Shown here: piece by piece, positions 9,732 to 51,366 of the stretch | How the letters are laid out: every line of letters starts with the position of its first letter | Numbering within the stretch: the stretch's first letter is position 1 | Assembly: GCA_964371255.1 (NCBI GenBank) | Contig: CAYJKV010000001.1 | Coordinates: 99,140-163,139, forward strand | Direction: 5' to 3' | From: an uncultured Candidatus Saccharibacteria bacterium | GTDB lineage: Bacteria; Patescibacteriota; Andersenbacteria; UBA10190 | Length of the DNA: 64,000 nt | Notes under the pieces: model-generated | Database searches by the model: none | Seen by the model: the letters and a program-made list of their open reading frames with translations, nothing else | Told to the model about the DNA's origin: nothing | Translations under genes and position numbers: made by a program

Positions 9732-11465
9732 ATGGTGGATGATAATAATAAAAAGGTATTAAATGCACTAGTCGAGCAGGGAATCATCAAAGACGAGAAG
9801 CAAGTCAGTGATATTGAGCAACAATTAGCAGGGGGCGCTACGCTGGAACAGATCTTAGTAGAAACCGACGTAGTAGAAGCGGAAGCGCTGGCGCAAGTAA
9901 AGGCGCAAATACTAGGATTGCCGTATATCGATTTGAGAGAAAAACAGATTCCGAAGGCGGTTTTAGATATTATCCCCGAATCGACGGCGCGAGGACACAT
10001 GATTATTGCTTACGATCAAACGCCGGAACTGCTGCGGGTGGCGATGGCCGATCCGAGCGATCGCCAAATAGTAGAATTTGTCCGGAAAAAAGTGGACCAA
10101 CCGGTCGAAGTGGCGGTAGCGTCAGCGGGCGCAGTGCGGGACACATTGTCCAATTACCAAGAAAGCTTGGAAGCTGAATTGGATGACGTGGTGAGCAAGG
10201 AGTTGAAGCTGGTCAACGAGATAGCAGATGATTTGGGTAAAGCAGCCGAAGACTTACCAATTGTCCGAATTACCCAGGCCATTTTAAAACATGCCATTAT
10301 GGAAGGCGCTTCTGATATTCACATTGAGCCGACGGAAAAAGACGTGGTCATCCGCTATCGAGTAGATGGTATTTTGCATGATATGTTAGTGTTGCCCAAA
10401 GCTGTCTTGGCAGGTTTGATAGCGCGGATAAAAGTATTGAGCAATTTGAAAATAGACGAACATCGTTTACCACAGGACGGACGTTTTATGATTGAATCTG
10501 ACGAATACAAAGTTGCTTTTCGTGTTTCTACCTTACCCGTGTTTGACGGGGAAAAAGTCGTGATGCGCTTGCTCGACGAATCAGGTAAAAAGTTAGGATT
10601 GGATGACATCGGTATCCGGAAAGAAGCGCTGGAGTTAATGAGGCGGATAATCCAGCGCCCACATGGAATGGTGCTGGTCACTGGCCCGACAGGTTCCGGA
10701 AAAACAACGACGCTATATGCGGCGATGAAAGAAGTGAATACGGCTGATGTTAACATCAGTACGATTGAAGATCCAATCGAATATCGGATGCCCCGAATTA
10801 ACCAAACGCAAGTTAAACCGCAAATCGGTCTGACCTTTGCTAACGGCTTAAGAGCGCTAGTCAGGCAAGATCCTGATGTGATTATGGTGGGAGAAATTCG
10901 CGATGAGGAGACGGCCTCGCTGGCAATCAATGCTGCTTTGACAGGACATTTGGTATTAACGACTTTACACACTAACAGTGCAGCCGGAGCCATACCGCGG
11001 ATGCGAGATATGAAAGTGGAAGCCTTCTTGATTGCCTCTACTGTGAACTTGATTATGGCCCAGCGATTAGTGAGGAGGCTGTGTCCGAAATGCCGGAAAG
11101 AACGTAAGTTAGACACGGCTGTGATTGCTGACATAAAAAAAGAATTCAATTCCGAAGAAATATTTAAGACCTTGGTAAAGGAGAAAGTGGTAAAAGCTGG
11201 AGAAGATTGGAAGGACGTGGTGATTTATGAAGCAGTGGGATGCAAGATGTGTCACGATGGTTACAAAGGCCGGATCGGCATATATGAAACCATGGAGATA
11301 ACACCTGAGCTGCAGAAGATGATAGTGCCGACTGTGACAGCTGAGCAATTGGAACAAGCAGCGAGAGAACAAAATGGGATGGTCAGTATGCTGGAAGACG
11401 GTATTATCAAAACTGTCGAAGGAATGACGACATTGGAAGAGGTATTGAGGGTGGCAAGAGAATAA
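9732..11465 (+). CDS. pilB: type IV pilus assembly ATPase PilB (GspE family)
   Basis: 577 aa. N-terminal GspII_E-like region, Walker A GPTGSGKTTT, Asp/His boxes, and a C-terminal tetracysteine CPKC...CKMC zinc motif. Confidence 0.9.
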   Translation: MVDDNNKKVLNALVEQGIIKDEKQVSDIEQQLAGGATLEQILVETDVVEAEALAQVKAQILGLPYIDLREKQIPKAVLDIIPESTARGHMIIAYDQTPELLRVAMADPSDRQIVEFVRKKVDQPVEVAVASAGAVRDTLSNYQESLEAELDDVVSKELKLVNEIADDLGKAAEDLPIVRITQAILKHAIMEGASDIHIEPTEKDVVIRYRVDGILHDMLVLPKAVLAGLIARIKVLSNLKIDEHRLPQDGRFMIESDEYKVAFRVSTLPVFDGEKVVMRLLDESGKKLGLDDIGIRKEALELMRRIIQRPHGMVLVTGPTGSGKTTTLYAAMKEVNTADVNISTIEDPIEYRMPRINQTQVKPQIGLTFANGLRALVRQDPDVIMVGEIRDEETASLAINAALTGHLVLTTLHTNSAAGAIPRMRDMKVEAFLIASTVNLIMAQRLVRRLCPKCRKERKLDTAVIADIKKEFNSEEIFKTLVKEKVVKAGEDWKDVVIYEAVGCKMCHDGYKGRIGIYETMEITPELQKMIVPTVTAEQLEQAAREQNGMVSMLEDGIIKTVEGMTTLEEVLRVARE

Positions 11466-11601: not shown

Positions 11602-12819
11602 ATGCCAATATACTCCTTCGAAGGGCGACGTGAAAAAACTGGCGAGGTAGTGCGAGGATTGCGGGAAGCACAGTCACATGCTTTATTAGGTCAAGATTTG
11701 TTGACGGAAGGAATCTTGCTGACGCGCTACACACAGAAGCTACAAAGATTGCCGGGAGCGACAATATATTCAATGATATTTAATCGGGTGCCGGTGATTG
11801 AGCGAGTTTTGTTTTCGCGTTATTTTTCGCTGATGTTACGGGCGGGGATGGATGTTAAACGATCGCTGCAGGCATTGCAACAACAGACACGTAGTAAACC
11901 CCTGAAGATGGCGCTGGAGAGCGTTTACCATGATATTGAACGAGGTCGGACTTTGGCGGAGAGTATGCAGGCGTTTCCGGCGGCTTTTCCTCCTTTGTTT
12001 ATCAGTTTTATCGAGGTGGGGGAAACAACCGGAAGGCTGCAGGAATCGTTGGAAGTATTAGCGAGTCAATTGCAAAAAGAATATGAGTTGAAGAGGGCGG
12101 TTAAGGGAGGGTTAATGTATCCGGCCGTAATTATTCTGGCTTTGATTGCTGTTGGTATTGCCATGATGTTTTTCGTCGTGCCAAAACTGGTGGAGGTGTT
12201 TGAAGGTTTTAATGTGGAGTTGCCCTTAGCAACGCGGGTGCTGATATGGTTTAGTGACTTTTTTCAAAATTACTGGATCGGGATATTCATTGTCGCTTTT
12301 ATGCTGATGGGATGCGCCTGGGGTTTAATGCGAGTGAAATCAGTCCACGCGGCGGTTAATGAGGGATTATTATATCTGCCCATTTTCGGCGGAATTATTC
12401 AAAAGGTAAATCTGGGAAGATTTTCACGTAACCTTAGTTCTCTTTTACAAAGCGGAGTGTCTTTTATTCGGGCATTGGAGATATTAGGCCAGAATACGCC
12501 TCATCCAAGTTATGCTCATGTTTTTTCCGCGGCACGCGAGCACGTGAGGCAAGGTAAGGAACTGAGTAGTTTTTTAGCTGATTTTCAGCGCCTGTTTCCA
12601 CCGATAGTCATCAATGTGATCAAGGTGGGTGAGGAAACAGGTGCTTTAGACCAGGTGCTGGCGGAGACAGCTTTGTTTTATGAGAGTGAAGTAGACCAAA
12701 CCATGAAGAACTTAACATCTATTATGGAACCAATATTAATGGTGGGTGTGGGGTTAGCGGTCGGTGCTTTGGCAGTATCGGTAATTTCACCTATTTATGA
12801 CCTGGTCAACGTTGTCTGA
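11602..12819 (+). CDS. pilC: type IV pilus inner-membrane platform protein PilC (GspF family)
   Basis: 405 aa. It has two GspF repeats and three TM segments, and sits directly after pilB. Confidence 0.85.
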   Translation: MPIYSFEGRREKTGEVVRGLREAQSHALLGQDLLTEGILLTRYTQKLQRLPGATIYSMIFNRVPVIERVLFSRYFSLMLRAGMDVKRSLQALQQQTRSKPLKMALESVYHDIERGRTLAESMQAFPAAFPPLFISFIEVGETTGRLQESLEVLASQLQKEYELKRAVKGGLMYPAVIILALIAVGIAMMFFVVPKLVEVFEGFNVELPLATRVLIWFSDFFQNYWIGIFIVAFMLMGCAWGLMRVKSVHAAVNEGLLYLPIFGGIIQKVNLGRFSRNLSSLLQSGVSFIRALEILGQNTPHPSYAHVFSAAREHVRQGKELSSFLADFQRLFPPIVINVIKVGEETGALDQVLAETALFYESEVDQTMKNLTSIMEPILMVGVGLAVGALAVSVISPIYDLVNVV

Positions 12820-14410: not shown

Positions 14411-14437
14411 ATTGCTGCGATAGGGCGATAAATTGCT

Positions 14438-15163: not shown

Positions 15164-17491
15164 GTGATGAGGATAAATAACAGACAAGCCGGGCAGTCGC
15201 TAGTCGAGGTGTTGATAGCGGCATTTATTCTAGGGATTCTGGCTATCGCTTTAGCGGGCGTGTCGACCTTGGGAACAAAAACAGCGGTTGTGAGTGAGGA
15301 ACGAACGGTGGCACAAGCCATAGCTAATAAAAGGGAGGAGTTGATTAAACTAACACCTTATGTGGACGTAGGATACACGGGAGGCAGTGTACCGGATGGT
15401 ATATTTCCGGCGAGTGAAGTGATTGATACTAACAACCAGGTGTATGAAATGAGGATGGATATAACACTAGTGGATGATCCAGAGAACGGTTGTGTGGATG
15501 CCGGTGGCACTTGTGACGGCAGCACATTAGATGAGGAGACGGCTGATTATAAGAGAGTGGTGATAAGTGTCGTGTACCCGTCAGCCAACGATGCGGCGGA
15601 GGAGGTTAAAGTTGTGACATACAGTGTGCCAGGCCAAGCGGAAGCGTTGTTGAATATGGTGGAGTGTGATCCAACTGATATTACCGGGTCATGTGGAGCG
15701 GGACAGATATGTTGCAACGAGAGGTGTCTAGCCAGGTGTGATCCGGGATCTTGCCCGGAAGGATATAGCTGTGCCGAGAATGGCTGCGGGTGCGTTGAGG
15801 CTGATTGCCCTTGGTGCGATCTGGCGACTTGTTTTGATGACTTTGAATGTGTCGCATCGAACCAGCAATGCTTGGCAGGTAATTGCGTAGCGGAGTGTGC
15901 CAGCGACGGTGATTGCGGGGGGGCGACGTGTTTATATGGATGGTGTTTGGAGTCATGTATAAATAACAGTGAATGCAACGGTGATCAGATTTGCCAAGAC
16001 GGGTCGTGTCAGATGCCTGGTTGCGTCACTAACTATGACTGTAGAGTTGGTTACAGCTGTACGGATTTTCAGTGTCACCCGACAACTTGCGTGGATGATG
16101 CCTATTGTCCCGCTAATTTTGAGTGTGTAGAGAACACCTGCATGCCCGCTGTTTGTGCGGATGGAACTTGTCCTGGTAGTTGGGAGTGTGTTTACGGCAA
16201 ATGCCAACCACCAAATTGTTCAGCGGTGCAATCTTGTAATAGCCTAAATTGTCTAGGAGGCGAATGCCAACCACCGGTATGTGAAAATCACGGTCAATGC
16301 GGCGGGCTGGCAGTTTGTTTAGGGGGGACTTGTACTAGCCCACCGGCTTGCGGGGCAGGTTGCCCAGCTTCATTATCTTGTGTGGGCGGCCTGTGTTACA
16401 AAGCGAATATGACAGTGGCGCCACTGCTTTTAACGGAAGAATGCCCAGCACCAATGGCTTTCCCGTGCCTACCGGCCATAGGTGAGGTGACGGTCACGTG
16501 GTTGCCTGTCGAAGGTGAAATATATTGTGAACCGTCAGTAACCACTGGTGCCTGCACAACTGATCCGAACCCAACGGTTGAATGGAGTGATACTGACGGG
16601 GATGGCAAAACCAATTGCGGAGCGTCGGGATTGCTGAATGCTTGTGAGCCTATTAATCCCATCGAATGCGGGTCTAGTTGTCCTGGTTGTCCAAGCTGCG
16701 CGATAGACAATTTATGTATTGAAGGTCGTTGCATGCCAAAACAACCTTGCCCGGTTGGATACGCCAATCATCCCACTGTGGCAGGAGCTTGTGCAGAAGA
16801 AGTGTCTGTCTCACCACCCGTGACCTGTCCGCCAGGAATATGCGCTGGTTCATATTGTAGCGCGAGCGGGGAGTGTGTGACGGCTGGCTGCGTGACAGAC
16901 GAACAGTGCGGGGCACATGGCAAGTATTTATGTCGTAATAATATATGTATACCATCACTGGCCAGGGATTGTGAGTATTGTACGCCACCGGAAAGAATCT
17001 CTTATTGCCATACACTAGACTGTCCGACTTGCGGTGGTGGCCCAGGATCGGCTTGCACAGATCCGTTAGGCGCTGCGAGTACTGTAGTGTGGTCACAGGA
17101 CCGAACAACAGGTTGTAGTCATTTGATTTGTGCTTACGCCCCAAGTCTTTGCGGCGACGGAATAACGCAGCCAGGGGAGGAATGTGATGGGGGGGATGAT
17201 GTAAATTGTCCCGGGCTATGCAGCGCTTGCCAGTGTCCGGCAGCGGTGTGCGGTAACGGACAGTTGGAGATAGGTGAGACGTGTGACCCTCCTGAGGGTA
17301 CTTCATGTTCACCGGCGGAATGTGGGACGGGCGGTGCGCCACCGTGCTTATGTCAAACTCAAGCACCGCCGCCGTTATGCGGGAACGGATTAATAGATAC
17401 GCTGTCCGGGGAGGGGTGTGATTGGTCAGTGTCGCCAGACTCATGTGTGGGAGGATATTGCAGCGATGTTTGTGTATGTGAGTACCCGTGA
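15164..17491 (+). CDS. giant pilin-like protein with cysteine-rich tandem repeats
   Basis: Prepilin motif NRQAG|QSLVEVLIAAF. The remaining ~700 aa carry more than 100 Cys in tandem ~20-aa units with C-x5-C-x4-C-x4-C spacing. Three C-terminal CG(D/N)G..E.CD units resemble the myxobacterial cysteine-rich repeat. Confidence 0.7.
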   Translation: MMRINNRQAGQSLVEVLIAAFILGILAIALAGVSTLGTKTAVVSEERTVAQAIANKREELIKLTPYVDVGYTGGSVPDGIFPASEVIDTNNQVYEMRMDITLVDDPENGCVDAGGTCDGSTLDEETADYKRVVISVVYPSANDAAEEVKVVTYSVPGQAEALLNMVECDPTDITGSCGAGQICCNERCLARCDPGSCPEGYSCAENGCGCVEADCPWCDLATCFDDFECVASNQQCLAGNCVAECASDGDCGGATCLYGWCLESCINNSECNGDQICQDGSCQMPGCVTNYDCRVGYSCTDFQCHPTTCVDDAYCPANFECVENTCMPAVCADGTCPGSWECVYGKCQPPNCSAVQSCNSLNCLGGECQPPVCENHGQCGGLAVCLGGTCTSPPACGAGCPASLSCVGGLCYKANMTVAPLLLTEECPAPMAFPCLPAIGEVTVTWLPVEGEIYCEPSVTTGACTTDPNPTVEWSDTDGDGKTNCGASGLLNACEPINPIECGSSCPGCPSCAIDNLCIEGRCMPKQPCPVGYANHPTVAGACAEEVSVSPPVTCPPGICAGSYCSASGECVTAGCVTDEQCGAHGKYLCRNNICIPSLARDCEYCTPPERISYCHTLDCPTCGGGPGSACTDPLGAASTVVWSQDRTTGCSHLICAYAPSLCGDGITQPGEECDGGDDVNCPGLCSACQCPAAVCGNGQLEIGETCDPPEGTSCSPAECGTGGAPPCLCQTQAPPPLCGNGLIDTLSGEGCDWSVSPDSCVGGYCSDVCVCEYP

Positions 17492-17512
17492 ATAACGTTT
17501 AGAAAAAAAGAA

Positions 17513-17971: not shown

Positions 17972-17996
17972 TTAAGTTGATCGACTGATTGAGGTT

Positions 17997-19640
17997 ATGA
18001 GAAAAATGAACGGATGGAAAGTCTGGCAGGTATTAAAGTGGCGAGCGCAAGGCCGGGAAGAAGGGTTATCATTAGTGGAGTTATTAGTATTTATTGGCGT
18101 AGGATCTGTCCTGATAGTAACGCTAGGGTTAATCGTGTCGGGAACTTCACGCATCTCACGTCAGCAGATAGAGCAAGGCGCGATTACGGAAAAGGCTAGG
18201 GTGCAATTGGAAAGGATGAGTGATGAAATCCGGAATGCCCAGTATATAGACTGCAACTTGGACGCAGACACGGCGGACGCGGATGAACATTGGCTGTATG
18301 GCGCTAATGATTTTGAAATTATTGTCTTAAGCAATGTGGATGATGATGTGGAAGCCGAACGGGTGAGATATTTTGTACAAGTCGGCACAACAGGTGAGAC
18401 CAAGAAGTTAAAGCGCGGGGTGACGCAGCCCGGTGCATCATTGTGTGATTTTTCAACCAATCCAGAAAACGTTACTACGGTACTGACTGGTTTGGAAAAT
18501 GCGACACCTGATCCGGCAGTCCCTGTTTTCCAGTATTTTACCAGTGGTAATGAGGCGGCGCGTTTGACCACGCCGGTGATTCGTTTGTCTAGTGTGTTGC
18601 GGGTGAGACTGGAGCTGAAGATTGATGAGGACATTAACATTGAGCCGACGATAGTTGATATCGTGACTGATGTGGTACCCCGCGGAGTGGAGGATCCAGG
18701 AATATGTGTAGCGGCGGGGCTGAATTTGCAGCGCTATTCTGATGGGGATCCTTTCGCAGACCAGGCGTATAATTCGTGTCAATCATATTGTTTGGGCAGC
18801 GCCAGTTTGCCGGCCGGGCAATGTTGTCCTTGGTCAGTAGCGTTTTATTGGGATTCGAGCAGCCATATGGTCTGGTCAACATGTGAATGCGCGGATACGT
18901 ATTTGCCTCCGGATATGATTCCTGACAGTGTTAGTCCCGGCAGTTACACTAATTTTGTGCGCTCGTGTTTAAACGGAACGCAGTGCGCAGGACAGAGAGG
19001 TGAAGCCGTATGCGAGCCGAATTGTTTAGACGCGCCTGGACAGTGTGTATGTGTTTGTCCGGGTGGTTTGCCGTCTACGACAGCATGTGATGATGGGGTG
19101 GATAATGATGGTGATGGGACGGCGGACTGTGCGACGTGTGATGGGGTGCTAGGACTGTTTTATGATCCGGGTTGTTCTGGCAGCGCCGACAGTTCAGAGT
19201 GGGGCACGGCTGAGTGCGATGATGGCCAAGCAAATGATTGTGACGGACTCCAAGACTATAGGGTAAATGGAACAGGGGATCCGGACTGTACTGGTCCCAC
19301 AGATAATGATGAAGGTGATTGCTTGGGATGTACCCCGGCACAAGTAATAGGAGTATCACAGTGCAGTGATAGTATAGACAATGATTGTGCGGGAGATGGG
19401 GTGGGTTACGCAGTTATTCCGTCTGATCCACAGTGTCAAAATGCGGCAGATAATAACGAATGGTCGGTGTTAAAACAATGCCACGACGGCTTTGATAACG
19501 ATGGGGATGGAGGCATTGACAGTAATGGTTTCCCGCCGGATTCGGACTGTCCTGGTCCCAGCGAGGATAACGAATGGGGAGAGCCAAGTATTGCCCCAAC
19601 GCCGACGGCAGTAATTACAGAATCACCACCCGTCTTCTAG
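17997..19640 (+). CDS. pilin-like protein with C-terminal Cys/Asp-rich Ca-binding-type repeats
   Basis: Prepilin motif GREEG|LSLVELLVFIGV. The C-terminal 200 aa contain four or more CxDGxDNDxDG...D(P/S)DC units, reminiscent of thrombospondin type-3 / DxDxDG Ca-binding repeats. Confidence 0.65.
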   Translation: MRKMNGWKVWQVLKWRAQGREEGLSLVELLVFIGVGSVLIVTLGLIVSGTSRISRQQIEQGAITEKARVQLERMSDEIRNAQYIDCNLDADTADADEHWLYGANDFEIIVLSNVDDDVEAERVRYFVQVGTTGETKKLKRGVTQPGASLCDFSTNPENVTTVLTGLENATPDPAVPVFQYFTSGNEAARLTTPVIRLSSVLRVRLELKIDEDINIEPTIVDIVTDVVPRGVEDPGICVAAGLNLQRYSDGDPFADQAYNSCQSYCLGSASLPAGQCCPWSVAFYWDSSSHMVWSTCECADTYLPPDMIPDSVSPGSYTNFVRSCLNGTQCAGQRGEAVCEPNCLDAPGQCVCVCPGGLPSTTACDDGVDNDGDGTADCATCDGVLGLFYDPGCSGSADSSEWGTAECDDGQANDCDGLQDYRVNGTGDPDCTGPTDNDEGDCLGCTPAQVIGVSQCSDSIDNDCAGDGVGYAVIPSDPQCQNAADNNEWSVLKQCHDGFDNDGDGGIDSNGFPPDSDCPGPSEDNEWGEPSIAPTPTAVITESPPVF

Positions 19641-19702
19641 CAAGGGATCAGATGGGCTTGAAAGTATTTGCCCAAAGCAAATAAAAAAGCTAAACAATAG
19701 GA

Positions 19703-21235
19703 ATGAAGGCATGGGCTAAATGTTATAAATGGCGAACCTGGTCAAGTAAAACCTGGTTGATAATAGTGTTATTGACAGCCAGTGTGGCGACCCATTTCTT
19801 GTGGTTTGGTTATCCGGGGCAAGTGGTGTTTGACGAAGTGCACTTTGGTAAGTTTGTGACAGCGTATTGCTGCACACACCAGCGTTTTTTTGATATTCAT
19901 CCGCCCCACGCTAAATTATTAATTGCCGGTACGGCTTACTTGTTTGGTTATCGAGGGGGAGTTAATTTTGACCATATCGGACAGGATTATGGCGATGTAG
20001 CCGCTTGGCCGCTGCGTGTCTTTCCGGCCTTGACTGGTGTGTTATTGCCGTTAGTCATTTATGCCCTGCTGCGACAATTAAAAGCTAAGCCAGCGGCAGC
20101 ATTCTGGGGCGGGATGCTGGTGGTGTTGGATAATGCCCTCACTGTACAGACGAGGATTATTGCTTTGGACGGTTTATTGCTAGTGGCCACATTTGGTGCC
20201 CTGGCAGCGTATTTAGCGGCCAGAAACCAAAAGCAGCCAAGCAGTGGGCTAATTTCGTCGAGTGTTGGAGTGAACACCTGGTGGAATTCATTGACGGGCA
20301 GGACACAGATGAAGAGAGAAGGATGGATGTTTTTGCTAGCAGGCTCATTAGTCGGTTTGGCCGTCGGGACAAAATTTACAGGGCTAACGGCTGGTGGGTT
20401 GATCGTAATATTACTAGTTGTTTGGCTGATCAGAATAAGAACCTACACTGAGATCAGAAGATGGATAACAGCCACCGCTTTGATCGTATTGGGAGCAGTA
20501 GTCGTGTATGGCTTGGGGTGGATGATACATTTTATGGTTTTAACCGAACCGGGTGATGGGGATTTGTGGCGGAAACCACAGTGGGAACAACCAATCATGG
20601 CTAGTTTTTGGCGCGAAACAAAAATGATCCATAAAATAATGTATGATGCCAACAGTGGATTGAAAGCGGAGCACCATGACGCGAGCCGCTGGTGGTCCTG
20701 GCCGCTGGTTCGAACACCAGTTTTTTATTGGCAATTTAGTGAAGGGGGAGAGGCAAACAGATCCGGATCAATTTATTTTTTACCTAATCCGTTTTTATGG
20801 TGGGGGACGTCTGCCTTGTTTGTGGTGGTGATATTAGCGATAGTGATTACGGGAGTGAATAATATTACAAGGTGGGCGAAGCGAAGGAAAGAACTTGGCC
20901 AAATGCGACAGCAATGGCAGCAGTCATTCTTGAAGCAGGCGTGGTTGCCGTTAATGGGATACGCGGCATCGTATATACCATTGATGAAAGTAACCAGGGT
21001 CTTATTTCTTTATCATTACCTGACACCCTGGCTGTTTTCCCTGATCGTGACTGTTTTGTGGCTCGAGAGAGTTGGCTGGATTACACCAAAGGAGGCAATA
21101 GATCAACCAAAGAGGTATTGGTTGGTGCTGGGCATAATACTATGCGCATTTATTTTTTTCAGCCCCTTGACGTACGGTTTTTTACTGGGAGAAGGGGTAC
21201 GGGAAGGACTGTTTTGGTTTAAAACGTGGATGTAA
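19703..21235 (+). CDS. GT39-family protein O-mannosyltransferase-like membrane glycosyltransferase
   Basis: 510 aa and polytopic. The loop-1 motif VVFDEVHFGKF is the hallmark DE-containing motif of PMT/GT39 enzymes. Confidence 0.6.
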   Translation: MKAWAKCYKWRTWSSKTWLIIVLLTASVATHFLWFGYPGQVVFDEVHFGKFVTAYCCTHQRFFDIHPPHAKLLIAGTAYLFGYRGGVNFDHIGQDYGDVAAWPLRVFPALTGVLLPLVIYALLRQLKAKPAAAFWGGMLVVLDNALTVQTRIIALDGLLLVATFGALAAYLAARNQKQPSSGLISSSVGVNTWWNSLTGRTQMKREGWMFLLAGSLVGLAVGTKFTGLTAGGLIVILLVVWLIRIRTYTEIRRWITATALIVLGAVVVYGLGWMIHFMVLTEPGDGDLWRKPQWEQPIMASFWRETKMIHKIMYDANSGLKAEHHDASRWWSWPLVRTPVFYWQFSEGGEANRSGSIYFLPNPFLWWGTSALFVVVILAIVITGVNNITRWAKRRKELGQMRQQWQQSFLKQAWLPLMGYAASYIPLMKVTRVLFLYHYLTPWLFSLIVTVLWLERVGWITPKEAIDQPKRYWLVLGIILCAFIFFSPLTYGFLLGEGVREGLFWFKTWM

Positions 21236-21499
21236 AAGGAAACTTGAAGCACGCAACTGAAGAAGTTCGCCCTCAGGGATCCTGTGGGGAGAAGCAAATT
21301 GGCAATACCCCCTAAGGGGTCCCCTCGGGATAAACGTAACAAATCCGAAACTTGATTTAAGGTGAGGCTTGTTGCAGCGAGTTTCGCCGGAAGGCGACTG
21401 TCCTGCTGGACGGCAAATTCCAAAGGCAAAACTACAAACACTCGTTAGAAATAAGAACAAGATAAAAGTAAATAAGTAGGGATGTGATATTATTATGGC

Positions 21500-22888: not shown

Positions 22889-23070
22889 TGGTAAAGAGGT
22901 GAATCAGTGAATTGAGTAACTATGTTCGGTTGGTTGCTGGCATTGTTGTCGGTGGCTTGAGGCTCAATGCTTGGTATGGGGGGTGGTTCAGAAAAAGGGA
23001 CGAACGAGGTATAGTGATAAGGAAGTTTAATTATTTAGCTTTATATCTGCAGGAATGAAGGGATCGATTT

Positions 23071-24099
23071 ATGATAGGGATTGATATATCAGATCGTTCA
23101 ATTAAGATGGTACAGAAATCGAATGTGGGTGGAGACCCCGTGCAGTCTTTTTGTTGGCATGTGATCGAGGAAGGAGTAATTGAGCGGGGCATAATTATGG
23201 AACCCAAAAAACTAAGTCAGGCCTTAGTGCAGACGTTTAAACGGTGTCATTTAGCGGTGGATACAGATGATGCGGTGGTGGCATCGATTCCGGAAACACA
23301 GTCCTTCCTGCGGGTGATTGAGATGCCTGATATGACAGACGAAGAGACGGATGAAGGAGTACGATGGGAAGTAGCCCAACATATCCCATTTGGATTGGAA
23401 AATGTTTACATCGACTGGCAACCGATACCGTGTGGTCATCAGTCGGCTAAAGGAATTCGTGAAGTATTGGTTGGAGCGGCCCAGAAAAAAGTGGTTGATC
23501 CACTGTTGGTCGTATTGAAGGAGTTGGATTTAGATGTGGCGGCCTTGGAACTGGAAAGCCAGGCCATTGTGCGGGCGTTAATTTCACCGGAGCTGCAGAC
23601 CAAGCAAGGTATTCTTGTGGTAGATTTAGGCGGCAGTGCAACAAACGTTATTATCCATGACCATGGCGCTATGAGGTTTACGGCTAGTTTGCAGCACGGA
23701 GTCAGAAGGATAGCGGAAGCATTGCCAGCTAAGGACAAGGAGGGTCTGATAGTGCCCACCAATGAGGATTTTGAGCCAGAATTAGCTCGTCGTGTAGCGG
23801 AGGCCATGCGACCGGCACAAGAAGAGTTAGTGATGGAAATTAAGGGGATTGTTGAATTTTATAATGGTATTGATGCAAAACATGAGGTGACCGAAATCCT
23901 GCTGACAGGCGGTGGTTCCAATTATCCAGGACTAGACCGAGTCGTTGCTAAGTATTTTGATGATGTTCATGTGCAGCGGGGGAATCCGTGGGCCAATATT
24001 TTACCTCACAGCCAAATGAGCAAGGTGCCAATGTCACTGAAGGAGTCGGTGCATTTTTCCACCGCGATCGGTTTAGCGTTAAGAAAAATTGAAGCATGA
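23071..24099 (+). CDS. pilM: type IV pilus assembly protein PilM (copy 1)
   Basis: MIGIDISDRSIKMVQ N-terminus, actin-like ATPase fold motifs, and a DLGGSATNV phosphate loop. 342 aa. Confidence 0.8.
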   Translation: MIGIDISDRSIKMVQKSNVGGDPVQSFCWHVIEEGVIERGIIMEPKKLSQALVQTFKRCHLAVDTDDAVVASIPETQSFLRVIEMPDMTDEETDEGVRWEVAQHIPFGLENVYIDWQPIPCGHQSAKGIREVLVGAAQKKVVDPLLVVLKELDLDVAALELESQAIVRALISPELQTKQGILVVDLGGSATNVIIHDHGAMRFTASLQHGVRRIAEALPAKDKEGLIVPTNEDFEPELARRVAEAMRPAQEELVMEIKGIVEFYNGIDAKHEVTEILLTGGGSNYPGLDRVVAKYFDDVHVQRGNPWANILPHSQMSKVPMSLKESVHFSTAIGLALRKIEA

Positions 24100-24629
24100 A
24101 GGACGATATAAATCTCTTACCTAAGCCATTGGTAATAGGTCGAGAAAGACGGGCGTATTTGTTTGGTTTTGGCCGCTTACTGCAGCGGATTGCTTTGCTA
24201 TTAGTTGCTATAATTGTCGGGGAAGTAGTCGTGTATGGCGCTCACTATTATATAGATCAGACTATGGATCAGAGTGGGAAGGCCGATGAGCAAAGCCTGA
24301 GTACGACAGAACAAGCACAAAATGTGAATATGTTGCTGTCTTTGGTAGATAACACGCGCAAGCAATTTGTCAGCTGGTCTTTATTCAGTGAGGAAGTGCT
24401 TAATAGTGCGCCAAGAGAAATTACTATTAGCAAGTTGGAAGTGAAGGAGAAGCTAGGAGCATTAGAGGTGGTGGGTTATTCCAGTCGAAGAGCGTCGGTA
24501 TTGGAATACAAAAATATTTTAGCAGGGTTGAGTTGGGTGAAACGGGTGGATGCACCGCTACAAAACTATGCGATAGGGCCAGACGCCGGTTTTTCTTTCA
24601 GCCTAATTGTTGATAAGGGAGTACAATGA
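24096..24629 (+). CDS. pilN: PilN-like protein (copy 1)
   Basis: INLLP motif near the N-terminus and a single TM. Translationally coupled to pilM. Confidence 0.65.
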   Translation: MKDDINLLPKPLVIGRERRAYLFGFGRLLQRIALLLVAIIVGEVVVYGAHYYIDQTMDQSGKADEQSLSTTEQAQNVNMLLSLVDNTRKQFVSWSLFSEEVLNSAPREITISKLEVKEKLGALEVVGYSSRRASVLEYKNILAGLSWVKRVDAPLQNYAIGPDAGFSFSLIVDKGVQ

Positions 24630-25270
24630 AATCTTTACGCTTGAAAAAATTAATAATTACGAGGTTAATAGGATTGATTGTTGTCGTGTCGTTGGTAGGT
24701 TTAGTAATTGTCGCTGGACGCTTCGTGCAAGGGATAAGAATTCAACTAGCGGAAAGACAGTTAGTCTTGGAGGAGAGTTTAAATAATGCAGTGCATCGGG
24801 CAGCGGTAGCAGATAAACTGGTCCAATACGAACCAGAGATAAAGAGGGTGACTGATACTGTTCCGTGGCGTGATGGGATAGGGCAAGTGATTGAGATGGT
24901 GGAGTTGGAAGCAAAAAAGTGGGGAGTGGCTGTACTGGTACCGAAAATTAACGAGGAACCAAAATTTGATGAGAGTGGTGTCCCTGTTCCACAAACCGGG
25001 CCGACAAGGTTGATCCGCTTAAAAGTAGAGGCAACGGGTAACCCCTTGGCACTAATGAATTTTTTGCATAGTTTGGAAAATTTGCCCTATTTAATCAATC
25101 CCCTGTCATTTGTTTTAGATAATGAAGATGAGAGTGTAAACACAGTTGGTCCAGCAGCTTTGGCACCGGCTTTGTCGGGTTCCAAGGAAGAAAGAGAACA
25201 AAAAACAGTGCAGCAGTCTTCCTTAAAAGCGGATTTTCTTCTCACCGTGCGGGTAGAAGAACTTAAATAA
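24626..25270 (+). CDS. pilO: PilO-like protein (copy 1)
   Basis: Single N-terminal TM plus coiled coil. Position after pilN, with a 4-nt overlap. Confidence 0.5.
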   Translation: MKSLRLKKLIITRLIGLIVVVSLVGLVIVAGRFVQGIRIQLAERQLVLEESLNNAVHRAAVADKLVQYEPEIKRVTDTVPWRDGIGQVIEMVELEAKKWGVAVLVPKINEEPKFDESGVPVPQTGPTRLIRLKVEATGNPLALMNFLHSLENLPYLINPLSFVLDNEDESVNTVGPAALAPALSGSKEEREQKTVQQSSLKADFLLTVRVEELK

Positions 25271-25274
25271 TATT

Positions 25275-25625
25275 ATGAAAATTGATTGGCAAAGCATCAG
25301 TAATTTAGCGGACAAGAAAAGCTGGTATCAGATCAGCAGTCGCTTGCGGGTATTAGTGCATCAGGCACCGCGCATCTTGTTCATAAGACATAGTCATATT
25401 ATTGACATTATCGCGGTGGGTATGGGGCTGCTGTTGGCCTCCTATTTAGTCTTTCTATTGGTATTTAAACCACCAACCGACATTAACATGAATAATGCAC
25501 AAAAGTGGGATTTGCAGATAGACACCCTTAAAGATTTGAGTAATTGGGTAATTGAGCGTCAAAAGGAAAAAGAAAGAGTACTGGAATTTAACCGCAGCGA
25601 AATATTTAAAATGCCGATTAATTAA
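25275..25625 (+). CDS. hypothetical membrane protein (pilus module accessory?)
   Basis: 116 aa with one TM (IIAVGMGLLLASYLVFLLVF). It lies between the two pilMNO modules. Confidence 0.35.
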   Translation: MKIDWQSISNLADKKSWYQISSRLRVLVHQAPRILFIRHSHIIDIIAVGMGLLLASYLVFLLVFKPPTDINMNNAQKWDLQIDTLKDLSNWVIERQKEKERVLEFNRSEIFKMPIN

Positions 25626-25631
25626 AGACGT

Positions 25632-26684
25632 ATGATCGGGATAGATTTATCAGATCGTTCAATAAAAATTGTTGAAACCAGAGGGGACGAGAACCCTGTG
25701 CTACGGACTTTGTGTTGGTCACCTTTGGCACCAAATCTGCTAAGACGAGGTGTGGTGCAGGATGTGGCATTGGTCTCAGAGGCCTTGAAAGTAGCGATGA
25801 CGAAATGTTCACCCATTCCCGTCGAAGGCGGTGACGTAGTGGCTTCGATACCGGAGGTGCAATCTTTTGTCCGTGTCTTGGAAGTGCCAGCGATGTCCGA
25901 GAGGGAAATGGATGAAGCGGTACAATGGGCAGTGCGGCGACACATTCCGTTTGATTTGGACCGGGTTTATATTGATTGGGAGGAACTGGACCTGGCGTCT
26001 GATATGCCGCAGCACAAACAAGTGTTAGTCGGGGCGGCCCAACGCGATGTGGTGGATCCGCTGCTGACAGTTTTGGATAGTTTGGGTTTTAACGTGGTGG
26101 CTTTAGAACTTGAGGCACAAGCCGTGATGCGGTGTCTATTGCCACGAGATATTACCGAGACAAGGGATATTCGAGGTGTTCTAGTGGTTGATTTGGGGGC
26201 CACGTCGACGAATGTTATTTTATTTGATCAGGGAGCAATGCGTTTCACAGCTAGTGTGCAAGTGGGTGGCGATGATTTGACACAGCAATTAGCGCACGCG
26301 CTAAATTTAAAGCCGGCCCAGGCGATGGAAATCAAAGCAAAAGTTGGCGCTGGCTTCATTAAGGATGAACCGGCAGCAGCGCAAGCTTTACAGAGCGCAA
26401 CCTTGAATTTAGCCCGCATGGTAGAAAGAGCCGTACAGGAGATGACAGTACAGTTGCCGCGTGAACAGAGAATGAGAACAATATTGCTGACAGGCGGGAA
26501 TGCAAATTTGGTTGGTATTCGGGAGCTGTTTGGCAGTGTTTTCACTGGTATTCCTGTGCAATATGGCAATCCTTGGACGAATTTGCAACAAGAAAAGAGG
26601 CGAATTGGTCTTAATCTGACGGTCGGAGATGCCATGCATTTTACGACTGCGATCGGGTTGGCACTACGCGAGGTTGATTATTAA
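25632..26684 (+). CDS. pilM: type IV pilus assembly protein PilM (copy 2)
   Basis: MIGIDLSDRSIKIVE. Paralogous to copy 1, sharing VVASIPE.QSF.RV.E.P and DLG..STNVI. 350 aa. Confidence 0.8.
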   Translation: MIGIDLSDRSIKIVETRGDENPVLRTLCWSPLAPNLLRRGVVQDVALVSEALKVAMTKCSPIPVEGGDVVASIPEVQSFVRVLEVPAMSEREMDEAVQWAVRRHIPFDLDRVYIDWEELDLASDMPQHKQVLVGAAQRDVVDPLLTVLDSLGFNVVALELEAQAVMRCLLPRDITETRDIRGVLVVDLGATSTNVILFDQGAMRFTASVQVGGDDLTQQLAHALNLKPAQAMEIKAKVGAGFIKDEPAAAQALQSATLNLARMVERAVQEMTVQLPREQRMRTILLTGGNANLVGIRELFGSVFTGIPVQYGNPWTNLQQEKRRIGLNLTVGDAMHFTTAIGLALREVDY

Positions 26685-26699
26685 TATAACCAGCAAAAC

Positions 26700-27278
26700 A
26701 TGGCTCGTCATTTAAACTTGCTACCTGTCGAACGTCGAGAGCATTTAAGACGCGGTGCTTTGTTAGTGTCAAGTGTGCGGATTGTGAAAACGTTGCTGAT
26801 GGGGCTGGGAGTGATGTCAGGTGGGGCAGTGCTCATTGGATTAAGTTTGTGGGGTTTGACTTTTACTTATGCAAGTTCCGGAAGTTCAGAGCTAGAACAA
26901 CAAGTGGGGGCATACGTACAGTTAAAGGACATTATTGCTCGGCAAAATCAGGTGCTGAACCAAGTTAATCGTCTAGGTTCAGAGAGGTTAGTGTGGTCGG
27001 ATTATCTCGGGGGATTTCTATCGGAAGTTCCGCCCGGCACGACAATTAATATTTTAACAGCTGATACAACTAGCGGGATGGTGACTTTTTCTGGTGAAGC
27101 GCTCACAAGAAATTCCTTGGTGGTCTTTGAAGAAAGGCTAAGCCAATTAGAATGGGTGGCGTCTGTGGCAGCGCCGCGACAGAATTTATTACAAAGAAGT
27201 AATCCTGAGTATAGTTTCGAGTTGAAGCTCAAACCGATGGGTGGGGTAAGTTTTAATGATGATGCGATGGCTTTATGA
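26700..27278 (+). CDS. pilN: PilN-like protein (copy 2)
   Basis: LNLLP motif and a single TM. Confidence 0.6.
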   Translation: MARHLNLLPVERREHLRRGALLVSSVRIVKTLLMGLGVMSGGAVLIGLSLWGLTFTYASSGSSELEQQVGAYVQLKDIIARQNQVLNQVNRLGSERLVWSDYLGGFLSEVPPGTTINILTADTTSGMVTFSGEALTRNSLVVFEERLSQLEWVASVAAPRQNLLQRSNPEYSFELKLKPMGGVSFNDDAMAL

Positions 27279-27937
27279 GTAATAGTTTCACTAACCAAGG
27301 GACAAGCGCCGCTAAGGTATTAGTGGTCTTGAGTGTGGCGGTATTGCTACTAGCCGGCTTACAGCCATTTTTGTGGAGCTGGGTTAAAAATCGGTCAATA
27401 GCTTTACATGAATTGAGGATTCAAGCGGAACAAATAGAAGAAGTGAAAAAAAGAACAAAAGAAATGGAAGATAATTATAACAACCAAAAGATATTTGTGG
27501 CTCAACTTGATTCTGTCGTACCGCAGAGTCGCAACGCACTGCAGGTGATTGAGCGGTTGGAAACGGCAACTCAAGGATTAAATGTTAAGTTAGAGGTGTC
27601 GCGGATTGATGAAGGGGCGGAGCTGAAACTGGGGGAAGGAGCCGGGCCGGAAGAATCTGGTTTGGTCGAACCGGTGCCGGATCTTGCCAGAGATAATAGC
27701 AAACCGGGTAACTCGGTATTTCCATTATTTATTACGGTTACAGTAACCGGTAAGCCAGAAGCGTTAGTAGAATATATTGACGTGGTTGAACATGTCCAAG
27801 AATTATCTTATATACAAAAATTTACGATATCACCGGCAGTATCTGCACAAAACCTGACAGTTGAAGACAGCGAATTTCAGCTGTTAATGACGGTGGTATT
27901 TTATTTACAAGGACAACCTGATGGATCAATCGAATGA
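27275..27937 (+). CDS. pilO: PilO-like protein (copy 2)
   Basis: N-terminal TM plus coiled coil. 4-nt overlap with pilN2. Confidence 0.5.
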   Translation: MSNSFTNQGTSAAKVLVVLSVAVLLLAGLQPFLWSWVKNRSIALHELRIQAEQIEEVKKRTKEMEDNYNNQKIFVAQLDSVVPQSRNALQVIERLETATQGLNVKLEVSRIDEGAELKLGEGAGPEESGLVEPVPDLARDNSKPGNSVFPLFITVTVTGKPEALVEYIDVVEHVQELSYIQKFTISPAVSAQNLTVEDSEFQLLMTVVFYLQGQPDGSIE

Positions 27938-28256
27938 CAAACTATTAAATCGCTCTTGGCAAGAGTGGGTAAGAATCGGCGGCAATTACCTGGTAGTAAT
28001 TATTACTCATTCATGGGTGAGGGTTACTATAATGTTATTATTGATGCTCGCTCTGGCCTGGTTATCGTTCACCAGGGGATACATTCCGTTAACAGAGGAT
28101 GTGGAGTTGCCAGTCAGTGTACTGGAAAATAATCCTAGTCTAGATATCAGAACATTACAAACGATCAATACCGATCGGGCAGAACGGGTAAGACGAGAGA
28201 GGCTGGATTACTCTAGTTATGCCAGGGTGTTAGTGGCGCCTGAGAAAAATAATTAA
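27921..28256 (+). CDS. hypothetical small membrane protein
   Basis: 111 aa with one TM. Overlaps the pilO2 end. Confidence 0.3.
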   Translation: MDQSNDKLLNRSWQEWVRIGGNYLVVIITHSWVRVTIMLLLMLALAWLSFTRGYIPLTEDVELPVSVLENNPSLDIRTLQTINTDRAERVRRERLDYSSYARVLVAPEKNN

Positions 28257-28726: not shown

Positions 28727-29572
28727 CTAAGAACGCCATTGTTTGAGGACTTGGTCGTATACTTCTGGTGTAGACACATCAAACCACTGATCTTCGAATG
28801 GATAGCCAAACAAGCGGCCAGTGTTGGTTAGTTTAGGAAAGACATCTTTTTCTAACGACAGCGGGCGGGGTTGTTTTTTGATAAAGTCGAAGACGGAGTA
28901 ATCGAAGGCGGCGCATCCGGCGAAAACCAAACGTGAGGTATCGTCGGCGATGACAGGCTTCTCAGAGAATTCCACAATTCGGGAACCGCGTAATTTAACC
29001 GCACCAAAGGCTGATGGATCTACCACCGAAGTTAGGGCCAACGTGCCAACTGCCGCCTTATTAGCCAAATGGAACTGAAGGAACTCAGTCAGATCCAAAT
29101 TAAGCAACACGTCGCTGTAGAGCAAGAGGAAAGGGCTTGGTTCTAAGTGCGGTTGGGCAGCGAGCAGGGCACCGCCTGTCCCGGTTGGTTTGCGCTCTTT
29201 TACGTACGTAATATTGACGCCTAGCCTGGAACCGTCACCGAAATGATGCTCAATTTTATGGGCTAAGTGGCTGACTGTAATCAAGATGTTTTTAATACCA
29301 TGATTGCGCAGTAACGTAATGCCATATTCCAGCAGCGGTTTGCCGTTGACGGGGATTAAGGGTTTGGGAATTTCGTAGGTGAAAGGACGCATTTTGACAC
29401 CCTGGCCACTGGCTAAGATGACAGCCTGATGCGTGTCGATATGCAGGGCACGGCCTAGGACCACTTCGAGGGCGTGGGAACGGTTGCGGATGCGCTGATG
29501 ATCAATGGTGCGATCGAGCGAGTGCAGCAAGTCTTCCCGGATGGTGATGGTAATACGTTCGCGTTTGGGCAT
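28727..29572 (-). CDS. sugar-phosphate nucleotidyltransferase with N-terminal ribbon-helix-helix (CopG-like) domain
   Basis: Residues 1-45, MPKRERITITIREDLLHSLDRTI...SHALEVVLGRAL, fit an RHH fold. Residues 48-281 carry the NTP_transferase motifs AVILASGQGVKMRP...IPKPLIPVNGKPLLEY. Confidence 0.6.
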   Translation of the reverse strand: MPKRERITITIREDLLHSLDRTIDHQRIRNRSHALEVVLGRALHIDTHQAVILASGQGVKMRPFTYEIPKPLIPVNGKPLLEYGITLLRNHGIKNILITVSHLAHKIEHHFGDGSRLGVNITYVKERKPTGTGGALLAAQPHLEPSPFLLLYSDVLLNLDLTEFLQFHLANKAAVGTLALTSVVDPSAFGAVKLRGSRIVEFSEKPVIADDTSRLVFAGCAAFDYSVFDFIKKQPRPLSLEKDVFPKLTNTGRLFGYPFEDQWFDVSTPEVYDQVLKQWRS

Positions 29573-50108: not shown

Positions 50109-51366
50109 GGAAAATGTAAGCACACGGGAAACTTGCCGAGTTTGCGGGCAGGGAAATATGCAGCCGGTCTTAACCTTGGGCGAGCATAGCGTATCGACTT
50201 TTGTGACGAATATGGATGAAGAAGCGGTGAAAGCGCCGTTGGAGTTAGTGCTTTGTGATAGCGGAGCGGGCGGGTGCGGTTTATTACAATTGAAACATAC
50301 GGTGGACAACGAAGTGATGTACCGAAATTATTGGTATCGTTCGGGGGTTAACCAGACGATGATCGCGGCACTGGGAGATATCGCGCACCGGACTGAAGAA
50401 ATGGTTGCACTGAAACCGGGTGACGTGGTGATAGATATCGGTAGCAACGATAATACTTTGCTGAAATCCTATTCCGTCAAAGGTTTACAGTCGATTGGCT
50501 TTGAACCGGCCCGCTCAATTTTGCCCTATGCGAAAGAGGGCGCGACCAGGGTAGTTAATGATTTTTTTTCCCGGGAAGGCGTGGCCGCGTTGAACCTGAG
50601 CAGTCCGGTTAAAGTAATAACAGCCATCGCCATGTTTTATGATCTGGAGGATCCGAATAAATTTGTCGGGGACATGAAAAGCTGTCTGGCCGACGACGGG
50701 ATGATCGTGATCCAGCAAGCATACTTACCGGTCATGTTAAGAGATAATATTTTTGATAATATCTGCCATGAACACTTGGAATATTATTCTCTGTTATCGA
50801 TGGAGGCTTTGTTTGGCCGACATGGTCTGGAAGTGGTTGATGTGGAATTAAATGATGTGAATGGGGGCAGTTTCCGGACCTATATTACGCATCAGGGGGG
50901 TCAAGTGAAGCATCTGCAACCGGGGGCGCAAGAGCGACTAGAGCAAATGCGGCAAACGGAACGAGCGATGCGACTGGGGAGCAGGCAAGTGTACTTAGAT
51001 TTTGCTGCCCGAGTGGAAAATATAAAGCGGCAGGTGACAGCCTTTGTTAAGAGTGAAGTAGCAACCGGTAAAAAAGTATATGTTTATGGCGCGTCAACAA
51101 AAGGGAATACTTTGTTACAATATTGCGGTTTAGATGATAGTCTGATTACGGCGGCAGCGGACAGAAATCCAGACAAGTGGGGTCGCAGGACAGTCGCGAC
51201 CAATATTCCGATAGTTTCAGAAGCTGAGGCACGCGCCGCGAAGCCGGATTATTTTTTGGTATTACCCTGGCATTTTATGGCGGAGTTCAAGCAAAGGGAG
51301 CAAGCCTGGCTTAATGGAGGCGGCAAGTTTATTGTGCCGCTGCCCCAGTTTGATGTGATAAGTTGA
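50077..51366 (+). CDS. SAM-dependent sugar C-methyltransferase (TylCIII/NovU-like)
   Basis: N-terminal zinc-binding CRVCGQ...C domain, SAM motif VVIDIGSNDNTLL, and a C-terminal C-methyltransferase domain. 429 aa. Confidence 0.65.
   Translation: MTKIQLQTEIKENVSTRETCRVCGQGNMQPVLTLGEHSVSTFVTNMDEEAVKAPLELVLCDSGAGGCGLLQLKHTVDNEVMYRNYWYRSGVNQTMIAALGDIAHRTEEMVALKPGDVVIDIGSNDNTLLKSYSVKGLQSIGFEPARSILPYAKEGATRVVNDFFSREGVAALNLSSPVKVITAIAMFYDLEDPNKFVGDMKSCLADDGMIVIQQAYLPVMLRDNIFDNICHEHLEYYSLLSMEALFGRHGLEVVDVELNDVNGGSFRTYITHQGGQVKHLQPGAQERLEQMRQTERAMRLGSRQVYLDFAARVENIKRQVTAFVKSEVATGKKVYVYGASTKGNTLLQYCGLDDSLITAAADRNPDKWGRRTVATNIPIVSEAEARAAKPDYFLVLPWHFMAEFKQREQAWLNGGGKFIVPLPQFDVIS

Follow-up and report, generated by a model that had tools for sequence, protein, structure and literature searches.

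A GT39 protein O-mannosyltransferase gene embedded in the minor-pilin operon of Andersenbacteria, with a putative role in pilin glycosylation

Introduction

Type IV pili are central to host attachment, and probably to DNA uptake, in the candidate phyla radiation (CPR, or Patescibacteria), and a recent study of Saccharibacteria type IV pili describes pilin glycosylation as unexplored territory in this group. Here we describe a gene for a protein O-mannosyltransferase (PMT) of glycosyltransferase family GT39 that is nested among type IV minor-pilin genes in the genome of an uncultured member of the Andersenbacteria. It lies within a 64-kb stretch of contig CAYJKV010000001.1 (assembly GCA_964371255.1), hereafter referred to as the window, whose first nucleotide is position 1 in all coordinates below.

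Pilin-directed O-glycosylation is known from TfpO (PilO) and PglL, the former being encoded beside a pilin gene. Both take ready-made glycans from undecaprenyl-pyrophosphate carriers and transfer them en bloc; they are Wzy_C/O-antigen-ligase-like and bear no homology to GT39. A second type is represented by TfpW of P. aeruginosa, which is encoded beside pilA and O-glycosylates pilin Ser/Thr residues in the periplasm; its sugar precursor is linked to polyprenyl phosphate and is the product of genes located elsewhere. Bacterial GT39 enzymes have barely been studied outside the Actinobacteria, and full-text literature searches returned no report that places a GT39 enzyme or PMT in a pilus locus or connects one with the pilus biology of CPR bacteria. 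The novelty of the present locus is one of combination: both the enzyme family and the phenomenon of pilin O-glycosylation are known, and they are newly joined here.

We document the family of the PMT, its intact active site, its fold and its conserved operon position. On balance, we lean—if only modestly—toward reading it as a competent GT39 enzyme without a MIR domain that resides in the minor-pilin operon of Andersenbacteria and O-mannosylates pilin-type proteins.

Results

A GT39 enzyme of the bacterial type

The PMT gene encodes 510 amino acids and carries the motif VVFDEVHFGKF at residues 41-51, from which a GT39 identity had been proposed in the initial annotation of the window. Two Pfam profiles match this open reading frame (ORF) strongly and beyond chance, namely PF02366 (PMT; 117.6 bits with a cut-off of 22.7; residues 24-280) and PF16192 (PMT_4TMC; 117.3 bits with a cut-off of 32.4; residues 302-509), the latter profile being covered over its whole length. 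No MIR domain was matched anywhere in the protein and the two modules are only ~20 residues apart, indicating a bacterial-type PMT rather than a eukaryote-type PMT1/2/4. Among solved structures, a sequence search of the PDB matched fungal Pmts only, with E-values from 4.5e-34 to 4.4e-23: C. thermophilum Pmt4 (9i5k; E 4.5e-34), S. cerevisiae Pmt4 (9e61) and Pmt1/Pmt2 (6p25). The NCBIfam equivalog for actinobacterial Pmt, NF058602, gave a score of 30 bits against a cut-off of 800, which places the protein in a distant GT39 lineage and argues against orthology to actinobacterial Pmt. PHROGs returned no match for the PMT.

Four positions have been reported as essential in the PMT of M. tuberculosis (MtPMT): D74 in loop 1, D176 in the Rx4-6D motif of extracytoplasmic loop 2 (EL2), and R441 and Y444 in EL5, equivalent to D77, D189 and R649/F652 of ScPmt1. 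We transferred these positions to the window protein by counting along its HMMER alignment with 6p25_A. The D44-E45 pair aligns with ScPmt1 D77-E78, i.e. the catalytic Asp-Glu of the first extracytoplasmic loop; R151-x4-D156 aligns with the second essential Asp, D189, in the EL2 motif; and R432-x2-F435 aligns with R649/F652 in the Rx2Y/F motif of EL5. None of D44, E45, R151, D156, R432 and F435 varies among 15 aligned homologues with identities of 42-78%. Judged from its sequence, the PMT is apparently functional, i.e. a catalytically competent GT39 enzyme with an intact active site. The same alignment, which includes proteobacterial homologues, revealed an invariant Cys-Cys pair shortly after the loop-1 motif (YCCT; residues 56-57), a pair that fungal Pmts lack at this position in the alignments shown.

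The AlphaFold2 model of the PMT (pLDDT 80, pTM 0.86) is in line with this assignment. Foldseek ranked Pmt4, Pmt1 and Pmt2 structures as its top seven matches (TMq 0.71-0.74, E down to 4e-17), the best fit being CtPmt4 at 0.74. The lipid-directed transferase ArnT (5f15), a representative of family GT83, reached a TMq of 0.47 (E 2.7e-4). ArnT was absent from the PDB sequence matches, and the PF13231 (PMT_2/ArnT-type) profile did not match the protein at E <= 0.01. Together with the PMT_4TMC domain, which is specific to GT39, the far better fit to fungal Pmts leads us to reject an ArnT/GT83 identity. The GT39 call made from the motif has therefore been borne out by domain content, the Asp-Glu pair and the fold, and the profile check between GT39 and ArnT that had been suggested at the time comes down on the side of GT39, with the catalytic residues in place.

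Position of the PMT gene within the Andersenbacteria and beyond

The nearest database relatives of the PMT belong to Candidatus Andersenbacteria, the best of them being 78% identical (GCA_001817065.1). The neighbourhoods of homologues at 78, 60, 50, 46 and 44% identity share the same gene order; a gammaproteobacterial homologue had no pilus genes nearby. We scanned species-representative genomes, which yielded 80 loci (given below as L numbers), and searched these by tblastn with the pilus proteins of the window. The PMT occupies the same operon position in 24 of the 25 species loci of the Andersenbacteria clade, with homologues down to 36% PMT identity, confirming and extending to the lineage the earlier remark that the gene is embedded among pilin genes. 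The conserved order reads PilB, PilC, a PilV-like protein, a 215-aa pilin, zero to four variable pilins, the PMT, a ComZ-like protein and two PilMNO sets.

Within the clade, the PMT gene is tightly packed. The median gap is 31 nt on its upstream side (n = 20, four cases being 4-nt overlaps) and 60 nt on its downstream side (n = 21), as measured with a crude longest-ORF gene caller, such that the true gaps may be larger. The large pilin-like genes directly upstream—between none and four of them—come and go while the PMT position is unchanged, and the position is also kept in loci without the ComZ-like gene (e.g. L017, L029, L033 and L045). Such placement across a lineage suggests that pilus proteins might be sugar-coated by the GT39 enzyme.

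The slot between the 215-aa pilin and the PMT varies in content: Cys-rich (98-Cys), Calx-beta, LVIVD and long PT/SP-linker types were all encountered, for example in L003, L008, L011, L013, L036 and L040. In the window, this slot spans 15164-19640 and appears to behave like a hypervariable adhesin cassette.

Linkage to pilus genes beyond the Andersenbacteria was considered and rejected. Some pilus gene lies within 10 kb of the PMT in roughly six of the 55 remaining loci (L050, L060, L069, L080, L086 and L088, one of them deltaproteobacterial), in non-collinear arrangements. These were not counted as support, because we judge such a frequency to be near chance where CPR genomes are small and contain more than one pilus locus.

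When 73 PMTs were placed in a neighbour-joining tree, calculated without support values, it grouped the pilus-embedded copies into one clade with a single nested exception (L039) and placed this Andersenbacteria clade as sister to a proteobacterial group, not to the PMTs of other CPR bacteria. Andersenbacteria PMTs share 38-43% identity with PMTs of Proteobacteria, Bdellovibrionota and Nitrospirales, versus about 31% with those of other CPR. This hints at a possible horizontal PMT transfer between CPR and Gram-negative lineages.

Candidate acceptor sequences in the neighbouring pilins

Bacterial PMTs are reported to favour proline-rich acceptors. Among the 53 ORFs of the window, 15-mers rich in Ser, Thr and Pro (STP) occur in only two, both of which encode large pilins a short way upstream of the PMT gene. 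The 775-aa pilin has an STP patch at residues 457-471 (PSVTTGACTTDPNPT), and the 547-aa pilin ends in a Pro/Thr-rich tail at residues 530-545 (PSIAPTPTAVITESPP), a candidate acceptor; within this pilin tail, PSIAPTPTAVITESPPVF is a candidate site of hexose addition to Ser/Thr. Across 16 related loci, STP-rich stretches were found in 20 of 65 pilin-region proteins as compared to 16 of 257 others (Fisher p = 5e-7), among them the pilin directly before the PMT in L011 and L013, with extended PTPTPSPS linkers and C-terminal tails made of SP repeats. Given the reported preference for proline-rich acceptors, such STP-rich pilins are consistent with a role as PMT substrates.

The strength of this result is limited by two circumstances. 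The enrichment compares extracellular with mostly cytoplasmic proteins and hence uses an unfair control, and the closest relatives have no patch at the same threshold. We therefore regard the search for Ser/Thr-rich linkers, which had been recommended in the initial annotation, as weakly positive: two short patches were found, and mucin-like Ser/Thr linkers in the window pilins were discarded as an idea, since there is nothing beyond these two.

A ComZ-like protein downstream of the PMT

The gene that follows the PMT was initially taken to encode a PilX-like protein. The 462-aa product has no profile match in Pfam, NCBIfam or PHROGs, and is better described as a ComZ-like large minor pilin. 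The protein has 1017 homologues and is more strongly conserved than the PMT itself. In its AlphaFold2 model (pLDDT 83.6), a 57-residue N-terminal helix (residues 14-70) is followed by beta-rich domains, and the sole significant Foldseek match is ComZ of T. thermophilus (6qvi; E 2.7e-10, probability 1.0), albeit at a low global TM-score (0.32) and 12-13% sequence identity. ComZ is a large minor pilin of the competence system, proposed to form a DNA-binding cap or tip of the pilus. The two proteins share the build of a large minor pilin, in which an N-terminal helix is combined with a beta-rich insertion, and a gene located among minor pilin genes. They differ in that the 462-aa protein has no recognised canonical Gly(-1)/Glu5 prepilin motif: its N-terminus (KKSGGVLVMTLVF) lacks Glu5 and matches neither N_methyl nor PilX_N, a PilX_N-typical AEAGL motif being visible by eye only.

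With the 462-aa protein modelled as a ComZ-like minor pilin, the PMT gene has pilin-type genes on both sides. The protein probably sits at the pilus tip, and its model suggests that the pilus made from this locus in a CPR bacterium may have a tip of the competence type.

A candidate donor synthase and its partners

The initial annotation had pointed to a DPM1-type synthase some 30 kb away as the likely source of the PMT donor, along with a YfhO-like protein and a sugar C-methyltransferase. All three genes are present as described (Table 1). The putative synthase, a GT2 protein, matches PF00535 at 82 bits, displays a DxD-type motif (MDADFSHD) and has DPMS of P. furiosus as its best PDB match (5mlz; 92 bits versus 48-51 for ArnC); it reaches no NCBIfam equivalog cut-off. 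Its kinship with DPM1-type synthases thus stands, and what has become doubtful is its pairing with the PMT. A metagenome scan recovered 80 related GT2 loci, none of them with a PMT within 10 kb, and the idea of the GT2 as a PMT-linked gene was dropped on this account. The C-methyltransferase gene overlaps the end of the YfhO gene by 32 nt, the GT2 gene is convergent to both, and the trio is kept in a 76%-identical relative (L090). In view of this conserved trio and the missing PMT, the obvious partner of the GT2 is YfhO, a partnership for which the CsbB/YfhO-type pathway provides the model. The three genes look like a three-component extracytoplasmic glycosylation pathway, perhaps for a C-methylated sugar. 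The further suggestion that the PMT itself uses such a sugar is unsupported speculation, since nothing ties the C-methyltransferase to the PMT.

Within the window, the GT2 is the only candidate donor synthase for the PMT. One synthase can supply several GT-C enzymes, as exemplified by Ppm1 in Actinobacteria, and DPM1-like GT2 genes (25-30% identical to that of the window) directly adjoin PMT homologues in other CPR and in deltaproteobacterial loci. A gene for a candidate GDP-mannose pyrophosphorylase flanks the pilus locus. The best NCBIfam match of its product is mannose-1-phosphate guanylyltransferase, at 168 bits and thus below the cut-off of 440. Orthologues occur at the same place in L010, L017, L023, L034 and L054 (376-517 bits) and, at a contig end, in L061 (198 bits), i.e. 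in six of the 24 pilus-linked species loci; a weak hit in L016 is not included in this count. A gene resembling NDP-sugar dehydratases/epimerases is located at 31304-32248.

Organisation of the pilus locus

All genes from 9732 to 28714 are on the plus strand; the features of the locus and of the distant trio are compiled in Table 1. Several of the pilin assignments rest on profile scores below cut-off. This applies to the TIGR02523 PilV N-terminus on the 537-aa protein (33.4 bits, cut-off 52.2), N_methyl on the 215-aa minor pilin (19 bits, cut-off 21.2), ComGG on the 152-aa protein (19.3 bits; PilX_N is likewise weak, E 0.61), the acidic double-disulfide repeat on the 547-aa pilin (28.9 bits, cut-off 41) and PilN in the second PilMNO set (a weak match of 20.4 bits, cut-off 22.8). 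Orthologues of the 537-aa and 215-aa proteins were found by tblastn in the loci of relatives. Both tandem PilM-PilN-PilO sets are present in most Andersenbacteria-type loci with enough downstream sequence; tblastn detected a single PilM position in some, e.g. L029, L031, L033, L038, L045, L048 and L059.

Table 1 Features of the pilus locus and of the candidate donor pathway in the 64-kb window
Feature	Coordinates	Strand	Basis or remark
PilB-type assembly ATPase	9732..11465	+	Pfam T2SSE 451 bits, MshEN
PilC platform protein	11602..12819	+	Pfam T2SSF 193 bits
PilV-like prepilin, CarboxypepD_reg domains, 537 aa	12797..14410	+	GFTIIE prepilin motif; lineage-conserved
Minor pilin, 215 aa	14438..15085	+	GMTLLE motif; lineage-conserved
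Large Cys-rich prepilin-type protein, 775 aa, 98 Cys	15164..17491	+	N_methyl 27.6 bits; variable cassette member
PilX/ComGG-like small pilin-like protein, 152 aa	17513..17971	+	Weak profiles; N-terminal hydrophobic helix
Large Cys-rich prepilin-type protein, 547 aa, 30 Cys	17997..19640	+	GLSLVE motif; directly upstream of PMT
MIR-less bacterial GT39 protein O-mannosyltransferase (PMT)	19703..21235	+	Pfam, PDB sequence matches, AlphaFold2 fold
ComZ-like large minor pilin, 462 aa	21500..22888	+	AlphaFold2 model and Foldseek; highly conserved
First PilM, PilN-like, PilO-like, small-protein set	23071..25625	+	PilM_2 128.6 bits; order kept in relatives
Second PilM, PilN, PilO-like, small-protein set	25632..28256	+	tblastn orthologues; PilM_2 annotated in orthologues
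Sugar-1-phosphate nucleotidyltransferase, candidate GDP-mannose pyrophosphorylase	28727..29572	-	Pfam NTP_transferase; flanks pilus locus
YfhO-family GT-C protein, 951 aa, ~10 transmembrane segments	47253..50108	+	Pfam YfhO 73.9 bits
NDP-sugar C-methyltransferase	50077..51366	+	Pfam Methyltransf_14, Methyltransf_23, Methyltransf_13
Soluble DPM1/DPMS-like GT2, 234 aa, no transmembrane segment	51401..52105	-	Pfam Glycos_transf_2; candidate polyprenol-phosphate-hexose synthase

No terminator-like site was detected in the gaps flanking the PMT. Over 9400-29000, the promoter scan returned 38 sites (30 +/- 5.7 expected) and the terminator scan 22 (17.6 +/- 4.2 expected); being at chance level, these scans carry no information on transcription units. 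The 264-nt gap between the PMT and the ComZ-like gene had no Rfam match. A structured RNA in this gap was rejected, as its fold z-score of -1.37 indicates no significant structure and conservation relative to L010 is restricted to the last ~17 nt. This conserved element (21483-21499; GATGTGATATTATTA) directly precedes the start codon of the ComZ-like gene, has its counterpart at about 11783-11799 of L010 and might act as a -10-like element from which a transcript with a short leader, or none, would start.

Elsewhere in the window, Rfam identified a full-length tmRNA at 34649-35042 on the plus strand (120 bits; gathering score 47), beside SmpB (33981-34427). ARAGORN reported no tRNA or tmRNA in the entire 64 kb, and the tmRNA may be divergent or permuted.

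Discussion

A putative route to pilin O-mannosylation

From the enzyme and its surroundings, we infer the identity of the sugar, the donor synthase and the pilus proteins as acceptors. In the scheme we envisage, a cytoplasmic DPM1-like GT2, for which the distant gene of the window is the candidate, would load polyprenol phosphate with a hexose, the likeliest being mannose donated by GDP-mannose. The lipid-linked sugar would then be flipped across the membrane to its outer face, where the PMT, with the Asp-Glu of loop 1 facing outward, would transfer it to Ser/Thr residues of pilin-type proteins. Transfer would take place after Sec-dependent insertion of the pilins, while these are still anchored by their N-terminal helix and before they enter the pilus. 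The likeliest targets would be the variable, adhesin-like pilins encoded upstream and/or the ComZ-like tip pilin, possibly also a major pilin encoded elsewhere.

A further step is to propose that the Andersenbacteria have recruited the GT39 enzyme as a dedicated part of their type IV pilus system, where it would mannosylate the ComZ-like tip pilin, the hypervariable minor pilins that resemble adhesins, or both. We consider this stricter version a tentative proposition, and one we would not bet on.

Alternative explanations

Among the alternatives, the one that survives best is a general-purpose PMT with many substrates among the envelope proteins exported by Sec. The position of the gene among pilus genes would then reflect inherited gene order in a collinear, one-strand genome, and pilus proteins would not be specific targets of the enzyme, perhaps not targets at all. 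A whole series of points weighs against pilin-directed mannosylation, and much of it speaks for this rival. Characterised bacterial PMTs, as in Actinobacteria, act on many substrates. The linkage with pilus genes has a single evolutionary origin, in one clade. Roughly 25 PMT loci of Proteobacteria, Bdellovibrionota or Nitrospirales, sister-clade members included, show no pilus embedding, and some 30 loci of other CPR mostly lack pilus linkage. Within the lineage, the neighbourhood is collinear from an ABC transporter to PrsW, the housekeeping flanks being as syntenic as the pilus genes, so retention of the PMT could partly amount to inherited gene order. With a single origin and a collinear wider region, synteny is suggestive rather than proof. 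In L039 (DATIIA010000082.1), the PMT (9965-11290) lies beside a cytidylyltransferase and PrsW, and the 10 kb upstream of it contain no pilus genes, the pilus block having been either deleted or moved and the PMT retained. Moreover, most genes of the window are on the plus strand, which weakens functional inference from adjacency in this genome; GC skew is strongly positive in most of the window (+0.2 to +0.27), with weaker values of about -0.04 to +0.18 at roughly 32-46 kb.

Other points on this side concern the pathway as such. The GT2 lies 30 kb from the PMT and is linked to YfhO, and neither a GtrA-type flippase nor a major pilin was found in the 64-kb window. The two short STP patches and the unfair control of the STP comparison belong here as well, as does the putative nature of pilin modification by the PMT.

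What counts against a general-purpose enzyme is, first, that the gene is nested between pilin genes with very short or overlapping gaps in many species; second, that its position persists despite gain and loss of the neighbouring pilin genes; and third, that the adjacent pilins are the only STP-rich ORFs of the window. Balancing the two sides, we hold the general-purpose reading to be possible yet rather unlikely. Were it true, the protein would be a commonplace member of its family whose gene lies in an unusual place.

Alternatively, the PMT could transfer a sugar other than mannose to the pilus proteins, for instance a modified or C-methylated hexose from the distant C-methyltransferase pathway. 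In favour of this, the C-methyltransferase, the dehydratase/epimerase-like gene and the GT2 all reside in the window, and the sugar specificity of neither the GT2 nor the PMT can be read from sequence. Against it, the overlap of the C-methyltransferase with YfhO and the conserved trio with the GT2 point to a YfhO-dependent pathway with no link to the PMT. To our knowledge, moreover, every characterised GT39 enzyme uses polyprenol- or dolichol-phosphate-mannose. We therefore consider this explanation improbable.

That the protein is ArnT/GT83-like or otherwise directed at a lipid or cell-wall polymer, or else an inactive structural partner of the pilus machinery, is very improbable: GT-C folds are shared, ArnT is among the fold matches and PF02366 presumably spans both GT39 and GT83, but the PMT_4TMC domain, the lack of a PMT_2/ArnT match and the better fit to Pmt4 speak against the former, and the invariance of all essential catalytic positions against the latter.

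Taken as a whole, the initial annotation is thus partly supported, and O-mannosylation of pilin-type proteins by a competent GT39 enzyme is the reading we modestly favour.

Implications

If pilin-type proteins are indeed mannosylated by the PMT, GT39 would be the third enzyme family in pilin O-glycosylation, after the TfpO/PglL and TfpW types, and the common CPR annotation "phospholipid carrier-dependent glycosyltransferase" would gain a function. If, in addition, the enzyme is a dedicated pilus component, it would be the first pilus-dedicated GT39 and would belong to the first defined protein glycosylation pathway of CPR bacteria; it might then help to determine how these episymbiotic, ultra-small cells recognise hosts, take up DNA or evade phages. 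An operon position conserved throughout one CPR class provides a concrete hypothesis with one enzyme, few candidate acceptors and one candidate donor synthase.

Comparison with known systems

ArnT (GT83) has in common with the window PMT a GT-C fold, a PF02366-related N-terminal module and a polyprenyl-phosphate-sugar donor; it differs in its lipid A acceptor, its lack of PMT_4TMC and its much poorer fit. Closer in sequence and fold are the fungal Pmt1, Pmt2 and Pmt4 (6p25, 9e61 and 9i5k), which provide the best matches on both counts, the identical VVFDEVHFGKF motif and the shared catalytic positions. The window PMT lacks their MIR domain between the two modules, is shorter (about 510 aa versus 750-820 aa) and would use polyprenol, not dolichol, as its carrier.

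In architecture, the protein resembles the actinobacterial Pmts (M. tuberculosis Rv1002c/MtPMT and those of S. coelicolor and C. glutamicum), likewise MIR-less GT39 enzymes that combine PMT with PMT_4TMC and have the same essential residues (loop-1 Asp, EL2 Asp and EL5 Rx2Y/F). A polyprenol-phosphate-mannose donor from a Ppm1-type (DPM1-like) synthase, exported and preferably Pro-rich substrates and action on the outward-facing side of the membrane would be expected in both cases. The window PMT is, however, only distantly related and sits inside a CPR type IV pilus minor-pilin operon, whereas no linkage to pili is known for the enzymes of Actinobacteria.

TfpW, the arabinosyltransferase for group IV pilins of P. 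aeruginosa, belongs to an Emb/ArnT-like GT-C family with a C-terminal TPR domain, not to GT39, and its gene lies beside that of the major pilin. Transfer and polymerisation of D-arabinofuranose by TfpW have been proven experimentally. Both are GT-C transferases whose genes reside in a pilin cluster, and TfpW is the closest functional analogue of the window PMT.

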